Of a stretch of DNA of 64,000 nucleotides, positions 38,495 through 43,432 are shown piece by piece. The stretch covers positions 62,001-126,000 of the forward strand of contig NZ_MWQY01000002.1 of the NCBI RefSeq assembly GCF_002087085.1. Reading direction: 5' to 3'. Under the pieces are notes generated by a model. The model had not been told where the DNA came from. It saw only the letters and a program-made list of their open reading frames with translations, and did not search any database. The position numbers were made by a program, and so were the translations under genes. Every line of letters begins with the position of its first letter. Within the stretch, counting starts at the first letter, position 1.

Positions 38495-39577
38495 ATGCAG
38501 GATCGGATTACCCAGAACTCAATTGCCCGGGCCCTCGGATTATCGATAAAGACCGTCCAGCGGGCTTTTTCGGGATCAGACAAGGTTGCAGAGAGCACAA
38601 AAACCAGTATACAAAATTACGCTGCCCTGGTGGGTTATTCATGCAATAGAAGCGCCCGGTCTCTGGTACGCAACAATCTGCGCAACATCCATCTGTTCTC
38701 CTCGTCTTCTCCTCATTACTTCTGGACCAGCGTTGCCAGGGGGATGGAAAGCGCGCTTCTTGAAATCCGGGATTTCGGGTATTCCGCTGTCTACCATCCC
38801 GTACCGGCCAAGAATACCGGCGCCTATATGAAGGAACTTCAGCTGGCGAGCACCGGAGGCATGGATGCCGCTGCATTGGTAAATAATCCGGAATATGATA
38901 TGGGACGGATATTCGGCTTTCTCGACCGCCGAAATATCCCCTACATTACCCTCAACATCGATGCCGTCGAAACGAACAGACTCGCTTTCATCGGCCCGGA
39001 CTATGGCGCCGGAGGCAGACTCGCTGCGGAGTTCCTGGGAAAAACAATACGGGGAAATGGCAGGATACTCATTATCCATAACCCGGTGGATTCCGAGCAC
39101 ATACTTGCGGGAGCTCATATAAACGAAGAACGGCTGCTTCATTTTGTTTCATATCTTTCGGTGCATTTCCCCCGTGTCGAGCACCAGGTTATTTCCTTTC
39201 GGTCAAGACAGAGCAGAGAAGACATGATGCAGGAGCTTGACGAGATACTGAGAGACGAAGCGGACAGTTTTTCCGGAATATACAGCATCGCGGACATACA
39301 GGAATTACTGGGGGAGAAAATTCTTCACCAGGGTCTGGAAAACCGGTATAGTATTCTGGTCCACGGCGTCAACCCGGATACCGGCATGTACCTTCTGTCC
39401 CATGCGTTTACCGCTGCTATCCATCAAAATCCCTTCAGACAGGGGTATTACGCTGTAAGGCTCCTCGAGCATTATCTGGAGAACGGAAGCATGCCGGCGA
39501 CAATTCCCTCAATTCCTCAGGGTATTTTGCTGGGGAACTCAATAAATGACCAGGATGATTTTTGGAGGATAGAATAG
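38495..39577 (+). CDS. LacI family transcriptional regulator
   Basis: [30 protein letters not shown], periplasmic-binding-type domain ([10 protein letters not shown]). Confidence 0.88.
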
Positions 39578-40242
39578 TGTCCCTTCGCCTCAACTCACTT
39601 CTCAACGGAATGTATGTCTCTCTGGCAAGGATCTGCCCCAGCCCCCTGAGTCCCGAGGGTATGCACGGCGCGCTGACCGCCGTTGCCCTCTCCCCGAACC
39701 CGAGCCTTCCCAACGCCTGGATCCCCGTGTTGTACAATATGAAGGGAGATCAGCCCGAATTTCTTGACCGCGATCAGGCGAAAGAGTTTCTTGATACAGC
39801 CGTAACAGCCTATAACAGCGTGGTTGCCTCGCTTACCGGAAACGAAGAGTACTCCCTTACCTTCAGTGTCGGGGAGAAACCGGATGCACAGGAGGCAACA
39901 AAGCTGCAGGCCTGGTGCGAAGGATTTATCAAGGGACTGCGCCAGACCGGCGTCGATCCCGCGGATTATGACCTCGATTTTATATCCCTCATGAGCCCCA
40001 TAGCCTTCTGCGCGAGGCCTGACTCCTTTACGTCCGTCGATGACAAGGAGATTATGGGTGAACAGATCCATCGTATTGCCGGAGAAATTCCCGCCAACCT
40101 TGTTGCCTTGAGGAACTACTTTTATCTGGACATCCAGAAGAAGCGTTTGGCCGGGGGCACGAAGAATCCGGGGCGTAACGACCCCTGCCCCTGCGGAAGC
40201 GGAAAAAAATACAAACATTGCTGCGGCAGAACTAATTCTTGA
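39577..40242 (+). CDS. YecA/UPF0149 family protein with SEC-C motif
   Basis: HGALTA, WCEGF, C-terminal [21 protein letters not shown] 39577 follows GGAGG. Confidence 0.85.
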
Positions 40243-40274: not shown

Positions 40275-41183
40275 ATGATCGAATCCATGCCTGTTGTTGA
40301 CGCCCATCATCACTTCTGGGACATTCCCGGGAATTACCATCCCTGGCTCTGCGATGACCCGATGATACCCTTCCGCTATGGAGATTATACCGCCCTGCGC
40401 AAACCCTTTATGCCGAGGGATTACGAATCGGCAAGCAGGAAATTCACGGTGATAAAGAGTGTCACCGTGGAAGCGGAATGGAATCCCCAGGATCCTCTGG
40501 GGGAAACCCGCTGGATACACCGGGTTGCCGATGAGTTTGGACGTCCCCATGCACATGTGGCCCAGGCATGGCTCGACAGCAGGAATGCAGAGGAGATCCT
40601 GGCCGGGCAGGCGGAATTTCCCCTTGTCCGGGGCATCCGCCACAAACCGGCTGGCTCTGAAAGACCTCTTCCGGGAACCACAGCAGAACCCGGCGGCCTG
40701 AGCGATCCCGCATTTCAGCGGGGATACTCACTTCTTGCCCGGTACGGACTCAGTTTCGACCTGCAAACCCCATGGTGGCATCTGCCGGAGGCTCTGAAAC
40801 TTGGTGAGAAATTTCCGGAAACCCTGATTATCCTGAACCACACGGGCCTTCCCAGCGACCGAAGCACCGAAGGTCTTTCCGCCTGGCGCTCTGCGATGAA
40901 GACCTTCGCACAATTCCCCAATGCAATGGTCAAAATCTCCGGTCTCGGTCTTCCGGGAAAACCCTGGCTCCTGGAGGATAACCGGGGCATTATTCTGGAT
41001 ACCCTTGAAATTTTCGGTCTCGAACGCTGCATGTTCGCCAGCAACTTTCCTGTGGACTCCCTGGTTGGGGATTTCGATACAATCTTCTCCGGCTTCCTCG
41101 AAGCGGTCCGCGATCTGGATCCTGGGGAAAAACGCAAACTGTTCGTGGAGAATGCCCTTCGCATATACCGGATAGATGCATAG
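40275..41183 (+). CDS. Amidohydrolase family protein (sugar lactonase-like)
   Basis: DAHHHFW, RGIRH, SFDL, LNHTG, VKISG, FASNFPV. Confidence 0.85.
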   Translation: MIESMPVVDAHHHFWDIPGNYHPWLCDDPMIPFRYGDYTALRKPFMPRDYESASRKFTVIKSVTVEAEWNPQDPLGETRWIHRVADEFGRPHAHVAQAWLDSRNAEEILAGQAEFPLVRGIRHKPAGSERPLPGTTAEPGGLSDPAFQRGYSLLARYGLSFDLQTPWWHLPEALKLGEKFPETLIILNHTGLPSDRSTEGLSAWRSAMKTFAQFPNAMVKISGLGLPGKPWLLEDNRGIILDTLEIFGLERCMFASNFPVDSLVGDFDTIFSGFLEAVRDLDPGEKRKLFVENALRIYRIDA

Positions 41184-41274
41184 TCCTCCGGGCGGGGGGA
41201 CGGAGACCGCGGCTGTTCGGTAAAATCCATGGTTCCGGCTTGACCTGCAGGCAAATACGGTGTAAACATAAGGC

Positions 41275-41352
41275 ATGTCTGGAATAACCTGCAGCTGTAC
41301 ACTATTCAGTACCGCAGCCGCCGCGGCCGCCCGGAGGGGAGCCGCGGTTTAA
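41275..41352 (+). CDS. Ala-rich leader peptide MSGITCSCTLFSTAAAAAARRGAAV
   Basis: ATG 41275 to TAA 41352; six consecutive Ala codons at 41314-41331 plus two more; below the ORF-track size cutoff. Confidence 0.75.
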   Translation: MSGITCSCTLFSTAAAAAARRGAAV

Positions 41353-41379
41353 GGATATTCCACAATACTGGAATCGTTC

Positions 41380-41417
41380 ACCGCGGAGACCCGGGTCAGG
41401 GTTACCGCGGTTTTTTT
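41380..41417 (+). terminator. Attenuator terminator (3:4 stem) upstream of the aminotransferase
   Basis: ACCGCGG-aGACCC...GGGTTa-CCGCGGT with a 7-T run, ending 47 nt before the gene start. Confidence 0.8.
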
Positions 41418-41464
41418 ATACCCGCCCTGACAGATCGGCCCCGGAGAACCAGAAGGAGAATCAG

Positions 41465-42763
41465 ATGAGACGACCGATTGTGTGGGACGGAGCAGGAGAA
41501 CTGCGCTACGAAATCAGGGAGATAGTCCGGGTTGCACACCGCATTGCCGCAGCAGGACTTCCTGTAGTTTATGAGAACATCGGAGACCCGGTACAAAAGG
41601 GAGAAAAGGTCCCTTCCTGGATAAAGGACATAGTGGTCTCCCTGACTCAGCAGGATACATCCTACTGTTACACCGACAGCCAGGGAGATTACGCCACCAG
41701 AGAGTTCCTTGCCGCAACGGTTTCTGCCCGCGGCGGCGCCCGGATCGGCCCGGAGGACATATACTTCTTCAACGGCCTCGGCGACGCGGTGGCCCGAATA
41801 TTCGGGTACCTTAAACGGGAAGCCCGGGTCATAGGCCCGTCGCCGGCCTACTCAACCCTCTCCTCCGCCGAAGCTTCCCATTCGGGGTATGAGCACCTTA
41901 CCTATCGGCTGGACCCCGACAATAACTGGATGCCCGATATCTCCGACATCGAAAACAAGGTCCGCTACAACCCCTCTATTGCCGGCATTCTGCTTATAAA
42001 TCCCGATAATCCCACCGGGGCAGTATACCCCAGGGAAACCATCACAGCCATGATAGATATCGCCAGGCGCTACGATCTCTTTGTCATCTGCGACGAAACC
42101 TATGCGAACATCATCTACAATCCGGACCACAGTGTACCTTTGAGCGAGGTGATCGACGGTGTCCCCGGAATGGCCCTGCGGAGCATTTCCAAGGAGTACC
42201 CCTGGCCCGGCGGACGCTGCGGATGGATCGAGGTCTACAACCAGAAACGGGACCCCGAGTTCGCACGCTATATTACCAGCATTCTCGATGCAAAACGCCT
42301 GGAGGTCTGTTCCACAACTTTGCCCCAGATGTCTATTCCCCGGGTTTTTTCCGACCCCCGCTACGCAGATCACCTGAGGTCCCGCAATGCCATCTACGAA
42401 CAACGGGCCCTGGAAGCTACCGAGATCCTTTCATCTGTTCCGGGAATGAAGGTAATCAAACCGAAAGGCGCCTTTTATATAACAGCAGTCTTCGATGAGG
42501 GGCTCCTGACGGACACCCAGAGCCTGCCCGTTAAAAATACCGAAACAGGTCAGTATCTGGATACAATCCTGCCCAGTGTCGCACCGGACAAACGCTTCGT
42601 CTACTATCTCCTGGCATCCGCAGGTATCTGCGTTGTTCCCCTCTCGGGTTTCTGCTGTGACCTTCCGGGTTTCAGGGCAACCCTGCTGGAGAGTGACGAC
42701 CGCCTGCGAAAAGAGACATGGCTGAAAATCGCCGATTCAGTACGCAGGTATACCGGGGCTTGA
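41465..42763 (+). CDS. PLP-dependent class I aminotransferase, AlaA/AlaT-like
   Basis: LRYEIR...ENIGDP (AlaA-like N-terminus), INPDNPTG, CDETY, SISKEY..PGGRCGW, PKGAFY. Confidence 0.85.
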   Translation: MRRPIVWDGAGELRYEIREIVRVAHRIAAAGLPVVYENIGDPVQKGEKVPSWIKDIVVSLTQQDTSYCYTDSQGDYATREFLAATVSARGGARIGPEDIYFFNGLGDAVARIFGYLKREARVIGPSPAYSTLSSAEASHSGYEHLTYRLDPDNNWMPDISDIENKVRYNPSIAGILLINPDNPTGAVYPRETITAMIDIARRYDLFVICDETYANIIYNPDHSVPLSEVIDGVPGMALRSISKEYPWPGGRCGWIEVYNQKRDPEFARYITSILDAKRLEVCSTTLPQMSIPRVFSDPRYADHLRSRNAIYEQRALEATEILSSVPGMKVIKPKGAFYITAVFDEGLLTDTQSLPVKNTETGQYLDTILPSVAPDKRFVYYLLASAGICVVPLSGFCCDLPGFRATLLESDDRLRKETWLKIADSVRRYTGA

Positions 42764-42841: not shown

Positions 42842-43432
42842 GTGATTAAATCGGCCCTTGAGATTGCTTTGGAACGGACAAAGGGGATTGAAGTAGATAA
42901 GAAGAGCCTGGCAGCCCATGATAAGACTGAAGAGGGTAAACGCCTGACCGGCAAGTTTCTTGCCGGCGACCTCAGTTCGAAGGAACTGTCGGCGGCGCTC
43001 ACGGAAGCAAAGAATGAGGAAGCCGAATGGCTCAGGGAGGGCAGCTTCTCAGTACTCGCTGCGAATCTGACCCTGCCCCAGGATGAGAGCTATAAAGAGA
43101 GACTCGAACGGGTACGGGAAGGACTTGTTGCCGTTACCGGGCAGAAAAAGCAGGTAAGCTACCTCTTTGAACAGGTGGAGCAGTTCTTTGAACAATACCT
43201 GGAAAACCAGGAGCAGCTCATACAGGCCCTGGAAAAGCAGTTTGCCCCTCGGCTGCGCCAGAGGGAGCAGGAAATGGAACGTCAGTTCGGACAGAGGGTA
43301 AGCCTCAATCCGGCCCAGGATCCGGAATTTTCGAAAATGCTGAAGCAGCATCTGGGAAAACTGGAAGCCCAGTACAGCGAGGCCCTCAAACAGGCAAAAG
43401 ATCAGTTGCGGGCCCTCTTTCAATCCCGTTAA
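42842..43432 (+). CDS. Hypothetical helical protein
   Basis: IKSALEIALERT N-terminus, AAGGAG RBS, coiled-coil-like composition. Confidence 0.7.
   Translation: MIKSALEIALERTKGIEVDKKSLAAHDKTEEGKRLTGKFLAGDLSSKELSAALTEAKNEEAEWLREGSFSVLAANLTLPQDESYKERLERVREGLVAVTGQKKQVSYLFEQVEQFFEQYLENQEQLIQALEKQFAPRLRQREQEMERQFGQRVSLNPAQDPEFSKMLKQHLGKLEAQYSEALKQAKDQLRALFQSR

Follow-up and report, generated by a model that had tools for sequence, protein, structure and literature searches.

The stretch of DNA analyzed here (64,000 nucleotides (nt) of the RefSeq assembly GCF_002087085.1, contig NZ_MWQY01000002.1, positions 62,001 to 126,000 of the forward strand; hereafter “the window”, with all coordinates counted from its first letter) contains a spacer in which the parts of a putative alanine-sensing transcription attenuator seem to be laid out one after another, all of them on the + strand, between a gene of the amidohydrolase family (40275-41183), which forms the 5' border of the leader spacer, and the proposed regulated gene, which by profile match encodes a 432-amino acid (aa) pyridoxal phosphate (PLP)-dependent aminotransferase of the NCBIfam family NF005334 (PRK06855; 41465-42763, + strand). 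The first recognizable element of the spacer is a candidate −35 box, TTGACC (41240-41245), which has its counterparts in orthologous leaders and is followed by a −10 region (41263-41269) that is preceded by TG and can be read either as TAAACA with a 17-nt spacer or as AAACAT with an 18-nt one. Next comes a leader open reading frame (ORF) of 25 codons plus a stop (41275-41352; product MSGITCSCTLFSTAAAAAARRGAAV), probably leaderless or nearly so, which carries a run of six Ala codons (GCA, GCC, GCC, GCG, GCC and GCC; 41314-41331) as the proposed sensing site and closes with a TAA at 41350-41352. Segment 1 (GCCGCGGC, 41320-41327) lies within the Ala run and has segment 2 as its partner on folding, whereas segment 2 (GCCGCGGT, 41341-41348), which ends 1 nt short of the stop codon, may pair with either segment 1 or segment 3. 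Beyond the ORF, folding places a middle hairpin (41353-41379) with a TTCCA/TGGAA stem (41361-41365/41371-41375) inside the 2:3 antiterminator, then segment 3 (ACCGCGG, 41380-41386), which is the terminator 5' arm, and finally segment 4 (CCGCGGT), the terminator 3' arm, which together with a tract of seven T (T7, 41411-41417) occupies 41405-41417. The aminotransferase gene has its own Shine-Dalgarno sequence, AAGGAG, at 41453-41458.

An earlier, sequence-only reading of the stretch, which had proposed a ribosome-dependent attenuator upstream of an aminotransferase gene, proved accurate in its account of these parts: the leader ORF does start with an ATG and encode 25 aa, eight of the residues of MSGITCSCTLFSTAAAAAARRGAAV are Ala, with six of them consecutive, the Ala run does extend over segment 1, the stop codon does follow just past segment 2, the T7 tract and the TTCCA/TGGAA pair enclosed by 2:3 are in the sequence, and a motif search found the core CCGCGG at each of the four places named (41321, 41342, 41381 and 41405). 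A fifth copy, at 41207-41212, was absent from its list; it lies upstream of the predicted promoter, 24 nt past the amidohydrolase stop codon, and could, as the fold of a wider stretch suggests, pair with the leader segments if an upstream transcript reads through. The hexamer occurs 42 times in the window (25.5 +/- 5.3 in shuffles), a total from which ~0.06 copies would be expected in 90 bases, and four are found in the 90 bases concerned here. The genome to which the window belongs has 88 GCN runs of at least five triplets, 13 of them inside ORFs of no more than 60 codons, and this leader is the only one of those 13 short ORFs with at least five consecutive Ala that has a T6 within ~100 nt downstream. 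Two near-identical 25-codon ORFs ending in SAAAAAVPY (G000:C43:2199-2277 and G000:C78:113-191, − strand) lie near contig ends, and probably belong to a repeat at which the assembly breaks; no T-run follows either of them. The leader product matched no Pfam family. A G>A change at 41339, present in one metagenome run (X18), would turn leader codon 22, which lies in the loop of hairpin 1:2, from Gly to Glu and leave the Ala run and the stems untouched.

The minimum-energy fold of the leader RNA (41268-41425; −62.9 kcal/mol, z = −3.0, matched or bettered by 3 of 200 shuffles) consists of three tandem hairpins, i.e., 1:2, the middle hairpin and 3:4 with its T tract, while the wider stretch 41184-41470, which reaches upstream of the promoter, is unremarkable (z = −1.46, 11 of 200 shuffles). 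When folded separately, the mutually exclusive stems that had been predicted all form, at −22.4 (1:2), −20.2 (2:3) and −22.5 kcal/mol (3:4), and such balanced energies are the classical attenuator arrangement; the middle hairpin alone reaches −7.7 kcal/mol, and the duplex of segment 2 with segment 3 has −19.1 kcal/mol versus −9.9 +/- 2.3 in shuffles. Stem 3:4 and its T tract (41380-41411 plus T7, the same −22.5 kcal/mol) make up an intrinsic terminator between the leader ORF and the aminotransferase gene. RNA data for the locus come from two metatranscriptome runs of one study, assembled into contigs over small parts of it at a depth of ~2-6, and such contigs cannot show starts, ends or levels of transcripts, may reflect DNA carry-over and support no conclusion: one X19 contig spans 41269-41409 with a 10-letter loose end, another covers 41101-41294, and over the gene body (41410-42722) there is no X19 contig and one X20 contig (42192-42384).

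Orthologous leaders do carry the Ala run that the sequence-only reading had called for, within the class and in a second phylum as well. The first survey, of 41 related genomes, gave 14 orthologues of the aminotransferase besides the window's own, 13 of them with a readable upstream region (that of locus L015 was cut by a contig end), and 12 of these 13 upstream regions are built alike, with a promoter of the TTGAC type and, a few bases past its −10 hexamer, the ATG of a short ORF in which 5-7 Ala follow one another, and then hairpins, a T-run and the Shine-Dalgarno sequence that precedes the gene. The one that differs, L006 (genome G003, of the window's genus), has no leader, promoter or terminator and is a natural loss of the attenuator. 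The aminotransferase gene of L006 starts a few bases after a gene for a SEC-C-motif (YecA-like) protein; such a SEC-C gene adjoins the leader upstream in L003-L005 and stands one gene further off in the window (39562-40242). The survey of the class as a whole (401 genomes of Spirochaetia, 67 of them with an orthologue at E <= 1e-120) added the upstream DNA of 52 new orthologues, two regions being cut by contig ends, which left 65 evaluable; a locus was called positive if an ATG ORF with at least four consecutive Ala lay within 330 nt of the gene. By this definition, 50 of the 65 have an Ala-run leader ORF, with four consecutive Ala in 11, five in 10, six in 21, seven in 7 and eight in 1; these positives cover 17 family labels, and 47 of the 50 have a run of at least five T between the leader ORF and the gene. 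Weaker Ala-rich leaders with terminators are found in another five of the 65 (AAAGA in L121 and L129; A-x-A in the AT-rich L160, L163 and L166). The three AT-rich loci, which share one genus label (g81), have scattered Ala codons (SAKAS, SAEAT, SASAKA), stems of the CUGUGG/CCACAG type and a clear terminator, and seem to represent the same attenuator in a degenerate or low-GC version. In a set of 80 loci, the same routine served as a control and found no such leader before any of the 11 Leptospira-type or the 50 other-phylum orthologues.

The terminator hairpin before the T-run is strong in all 22 leaders examined (−14.8 to −33.9 kcal/mol), and a complement to the terminator 5' arm lies between the Ala run and the terminator, at a shuffle frequency of at most 0.05, in 15 of 18 non-redundant leaders (the test failed in L072, L097 and L098); in the 15 passing leaders, this antiterminator stretch is nearly as stable as the terminator itself. 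Antiterminator strands pair better with the partner from their own species (mean −17.4 kcal/mol) than with that of a mismatched one (−13.5 kcal/mol), with none of 10,000 permutations being as good. On an alignment of 19 leaders, pairing is possible in 93.4% of the terminator cells and in 88.9% of the antiterminator cells, against 36-53% with the partner slid, and three pairs in each of the two helices have changed on both sides. A hairpin at the middle position is found in L003-L005 too, with another stem sequence. The architecture comes in more than one version: in the short design, the antiterminator strand (segment 2) starts 4-10 nt past the end of the Ala run and touches or overlaps the stop codon, the long design (L007, L008, L014, L058 and L072) has two extra segments that, in our reading, leave the parity unchanged, and many relatives have a three-segment or six-segment chain rather than one of four. 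The clade of the window has the classical protector 1:2 as well because the Ala run itself contains a CCGCGG core.

Ala-run leaders also turned up, among the same 80 loci, before orthologues labelled Desulfuromonas/Desulfuromonadales. The sample of this Desulfuromonadales-type order comprises 151 genomes, 142 of which have an orthologue, and 20 of the 30 loci listed (L167-L196) have a leader ORF with 4-8 consecutive Ala and up to 56% Ala (e.g., MAAAAAAAKAAAIGRTCAHTFAG). These leaders have a 5' untranslated region and a Shine-Dalgarno sequence, and their Ala run is remote from the terminator, the core of which (GGCCATGG...CCATGGCC) is almost invariant before the gene across the order; late in the ORF there is often a segment complementary to the terminator 5' arm and loop, and it varies along with the terminator. 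The leader ORFs of L167-L196 differ widely in length and sequence, and 7 of the 30 loci showed no Ala-enriched ORF in the screen.

The protein encoded behind the terminator is a full-length member of NF005334 (651.6 bits with a cut-off of 443, residues 1-430 of 432), a family that carries only the name “PLP-dependent aminotransferase”; its Pfam family is Aminotran_1_2, and its closest solved structures in PDB are alanine aminotransferases, namely E. coli AlaA (4cvq, E 1.5e-41), the one from Pyrococcus (1xi9) and human ALT2 (3ihj). The label “AlaA-like”, given in the sequence-only reading, thus holds at the superfamily level, AlaA being the best PDB match, and does not extend to the AlaA orthologue group, the E-value being only 1.5e-41, whereas the true AlaA orthologue of the genome, located outside the window (G000:C79:146300-147514, − strand), is a full-length match to 4cvq with an E-value of 8.7e-189. 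No Ala leader was seen in the 300 bases upstream of that AlaA gene. Judged by sequence, the regulated PRK06855 enzyme is a sister family of AlaA, not AlaA. An alanine dehydrogenase is likewise encoded outside the window (G000:C79:128081-129187, + strand; above the TIGR00518 cut-off), which makes the leader-controlled enzyme a possible third route to or from alanine, and we infer from sequence similarity that this enzyme makes alanine from pyruvate. Downstream of its gene, a 196-aa ORF (42842-43432, + strand) has a weak, below-cut-off match to the LA_3659/SpiroCoCo spirochaete coiled-coil families (E 8.5e-6).

A hexamer TTGAC[ACG] is found at the corresponding position in 45 of the 50 orthologous leaders, and an in-frame ATG lies 5-12 nt past the −10 hexamer of a TTGAC-N16-18-nAnnnT promoter in 45 of the 50 as well (5-7 nt in 37 leaders), a geometry found at only 7 of 258 other ATGs; a Shine-Dalgarno-like tetramer precedes 4 of the 50 leader ATGs versus all 50 aminotransferase ATGs. 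The −10 box is weak in the window and stronger in relatives (TAATAT, TATAGT, TAGTAT), the ATG of the window's leader is located 5-6 nt downstream of it, and the AAGG before this ATG cannot serve as a Shine-Dalgarno sequence because it is too close. We infer from this geometry that the transcript begins at or just before the leader AUG, and the spirochaete leader is probably read from a leaderless mRNA.

We consider it highly probable, on the strength of the sequences and the folding models, that the locus is an alanine-sensing, ribosome-dependent (leader-peptide) transcription attenuator, and the earlier proposal to this effect has gained support from the conserved Ala run, the second phylum and the balanced exclusive stems. 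The parts, their conservation and their alternative pairings are established by computation, and the way in which they might act together can be outlined as follows. The attenuator would control a monocistronic gene of the PRK06855 family, with transcription starting at, or a few bases before, the ATG at 41275 and the 25-codon leader being translated without a Shine-Dalgarno sequence. With Ala-tRNA plentiful, the ribosome would reach the stop codon at 41350 and cover segment 2 (41341-48), upon which the 3:4 terminator (41380-41411 plus T7) would form and transcription would end before the gene; with no ribosome on the leader, 1:2 would form, leading to the same outcome, termination. With charged Ala-tRNA scarce, the ribosome would stall in the Ala run (41314-31) and occupy segment 1, segment 2 would be free to pair with segment 3 before segment 4 is made, and the polymerase would read into the aminotransferase gene, the product of which would then make alanine from pyruvate, provided that the reaction is assigned correctly.

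The same hardware could also be a gauge of translation stress in general (due to antibiotics or global starvation), as first put forward for the whiB7 upstream ORF (uORF), and the Ala codons would be just one of several stall sites for it; any slow ribosome upstream of segment 2 would indeed favour 2:3. We nevertheless regard such a gauge as unlikely: tandem identical codons are a hallmark of amino-acid-specific attenuators, nothing but the Ala run has been conserved in 17 families and two phyla, the other residues of the peptide having drifted, and the target is an aminotransferase whose nearest solved relatives make alanine, not a stress regulator. What speaks for a gauge, apart from the indifference of the pairing to the cause of a stall, is the precedent of the whiB7 uORF, which responds to many amino-acid depletions and to ribosome inhibitors (PMC10274678, in the part of that paper available).

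A structured RNA switch for a protein, tRNA or small molecule, with the GCN triplets acting as pairing material and the frame being incidental, would make sense of the self-complementarity of the Ala codons (GCC GCG GCC contains CCGCGG), of the CCGCGG core shared by all four segments of the window and of the part that the Ala run takes in 1:2; the codon-level signature, however, makes it quite unlikely. In the alignment of 19 leaders, the only invariant columns of the run are the first two positions of four Ala codons in succession, with variation at the third, and all four Ala codons are used in the leaders (GCC 94, GCA 86, GCG 78 and GCT 19 times), while the peptide outside the run is not conserved between clades, save for C-terminal residues that coincide with segment 2. 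The AT-rich relatives have turned their stems into CUGUGG/CCACAG and kept their Ala codons, and the Ala run of the Desulfuromonadales-type leaders is far from the terminator. The leader frame, moreover, is always open and always closes at or near segment 2, with its ATG 5-12 nt past the −10 hexamer as often as described above. Rfam, its T-box and riboswitch families included, gave no match in 40500-42500 even at E <= 10, and for 12 related loci of both lineages at E <= 1 the only match was a chance-level one to sraA, away from the leader.

Control in the opposite direction, with an enzyme that degrades alanine and an Ala run that is itself the antiterminator strand, masked by the stalled ribosome so that the gene is off at low alanine, we hold to be very unlikely, even though transaminase reactions are reversible, other alanine-forming enzymes are encoded in the genome and a covered segment 2, as in the ribosome-at-stop state, allows segment 1 to pair with segment 3. 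The evidence here comes from a footprint model of 22 leaders, in which the transcript was cut just before the terminator 3' arm, a 30-nt footprint was blocked and the probability of the 5' arm being paired upstream was compared between a ribosome on the first three Ala codons and one at the stop codon (the row of L032, one of the 22, was unusable owing to an over-extended terminator call). The probability of segment 3 being paired was higher by at least 0.1 in the stalled state than in the at-stop state in 16 of the 22 leaders, with the sister species L004/L005 going from 0.02-0.05 when free to 0.87 when stalled and 0.02-0.06 at stop, and there was no leader in which modelled Ala stalling clearly lowered the sequestration of the 5' arm. 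Leaders with two extra segments keep, in our reading, the parity in which a stall means read-through, and the remoteness of the Ala run from the terminator in the Desulfuromonadales-type leaders also argues against its being the antiterminator strand. Finally, a chance ORF in a GC-rich spacer that carries the terminator of the upstream amidohydrolase gene is hardly credible, for while that gene ends at 41183 with no terminator of its own flagged by a consensus scan, and one metatranscriptome contig runs from it into the leader (contigs being unable to show transcripts), the idea is contradicted by the conservation counts and controls (50/65 versus 0/11 and 0/50), by the dedicated promoter in front of the leader ATG and by the upstream gene, which is a different one in relatives (it encodes a SEC-C motif protein in L003-L005 and other products elsewhere) with the leader retained.

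Several observations weigh against the alanine attenuator itself and ought to be set beside those that favour it. With the whole terminator present, equilibrium folding with footprints lets the terminator win in nearly every state, and the switch must therefore be kinetic. In the footprint model, the difference between the two states was below 0.1 in 5 of the 22 leaders (L001, L007, L008, L010 and L098), the window's own among these five: folding with segments blocked, which the sequence-only reading had suggested as a check, does show the Ala footprint shifting segment 3 into 2:3 (from 0.46 when free to ~0.82 when stalled), but the value at stop is 0.73, so that the two states are poorly separated, the high at-stop value arising because the freed segment 1 pairs with segment 3 once segment 2 is covered. 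Compensatory changes are few, at three pairs per helix, and as the sequences are related, the shuffle figures overstate the support; the covarying stems that the sequence-only reading had proposed to look for in orthologues are thus there, in a modest number and among related sequences, and are supportive rather than decisive. In the Desulfuromonadales-type order, only 6 of 20 antiterminator duplexes beat 95% of their shuffles. As many as 10 of the 65 class orthologues are without any leader, the same-genus L006 among them, and the reverse-complement control gave 9 of 65, although this control makes a poor null, a GCN repeat being read as GCN on the opposite strand too, if in another register. 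A simple consensus scan for promoters and terminators flagged neither at the leader, the terminator going unflagged because the inner helix in its loop exceeds the 3-8 nt loop limit of the scan and the promoter because its −10 box is weak. The transcription start, for its part, has been placed from promoter geometry alone, and with AlaA and alanine dehydrogenase already in the genome, it is not obvious why a third, regulated route should be needed.

The classical leader-peptide attenuators are those of enterobacteria (trpL, hisL, leuL, thrL, ilvL and pheL), and to our knowledge alanine is absent from the textbook list of amino acids whose genes are attenuated in this way. The present locus has in common with them a short leader ORF with tandem cognate codons and a stop codon next to segment 2, a set of four segments that can form 1:2, 2:3 and 3:4 as exclusive pairings with similar energies, and an intrinsic terminator ahead of the first structural gene. 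It departs from them in that alanine would be sensed, that the target is a single aminotransferase gene rather than a pathway operon, that the hosts are Spirochaetia and a Desulfuromonadales-type order, that in spirochaetes the leader lacks a Shine-Dalgarno sequence and begins 5-12 nt past the −10 box, that many relatives have three- or six-segment chains and that no Rfam leader family is matched. T-box leaders for tRNA-Ala, known from Firmicutes, also sense tRNA charging and switch an intrinsic terminator, which they do by binding the tRNA directly, with no translation involved; the charging of tRNA-Ala would be sensed and a terminator switched here as well, but the Rfam search gave no T-box match.

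The statement of the sequence-only reading that no attenuator for alanine synthesis had been described needs qualification, as an alanine-responsive uORF acting through whiB7 and aspC has been published, the one precedent found for alanine. According to the available part of that work (Poulton et al., PMC10274678), the whiB7 uORF of mycobacteria and other Actinobacteria is enriched in Ala, stalling on it leads to antitermination and hence to WhiB7, and WhiB7 activates the alanine aminotransferase gene aspC, by which alanine is restored; the uORF is 25-40% Ala, does not require a long uninterrupted run and is responsive to antibiotics, too. Both systems thus have an Ala-rich leader on which stalling leads, or would lead, to antitermination and in the end to more alanine aminotransferase, whereas the whiB7 uORF controls a transcription factor that activates aspC at a distance and the leader described here stands directly before the aminotransferase gene, which belongs to another aminotransferase family, the gene downstream encoding a PRK06855 aminotransferase and not a WhiB7-family factor. 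The leaderless polycysteine short ORFs of mycobacteria, presented in the available part of their description as cysteine-responsive attenuators (bioRxiv 10.1101/834739), resemble the spirochaete leader in having the sensing ORF at the 5' end of the transcript and a run of codons for one amino acid before the genes for that amino acid, and differ in that they sense cysteine, in Actinobacteria, instead of alanine, in Spirochaetia; as far as that part of the source goes, they were the only comparable leaderless case found in print. The literature covered (the attenuator survey of Lopatovskaya et al. 2010 lay outside it) yielded no paper in which an Ala-run leader is described directly ahead of an alanine or PRK06855 aminotransferase gene, and no paper was found under the name PRK06855; alanine is not mentioned by Naville & Gautheret 2010 (PMC2965389), and nothing relevant was found in the available parts of Livny & Waldor 2010 (PMC2836559) and Korolev et al. 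2016 (PMC4833913).

We lean, if only slightly, towards the view that these leaders form an undescribed and widespread family of alanine-specific attenuators, present in at least two phyla (Spirochaetota and the one with the Desulfuromonadales-type order) and leaderless in spirochaetes, where the leader ATG would be the first codon. What would be new relative to the textbook mechanism, as far as the sequences indicate, is the amino acid, the target family, the phyla and probably the leaderless start. The short and long chains of segments seen across clades would then depict a switch that has been rebuilt while its logic was kept, and the spacing between promoter and ATG is a natural system in which leaderless translation in spirochaetes could be tested cleanly; if the interpretation is true, this would be a first sign that such translation serves regulation in Spirochaetia. 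With an alanine attenuator that acts directly and in cis, the classic mechanism would gain a new amino acid and reach phyla that have been little studied. Such an attenuator also gives a large and generically named protein family a testable label, that of an alanine-forming transaminase induced by alanine shortage: if true, the PRK06855 aminotransferases would be the alanine-starvation-inducible, alanine-forming enzyme of these bacteria.

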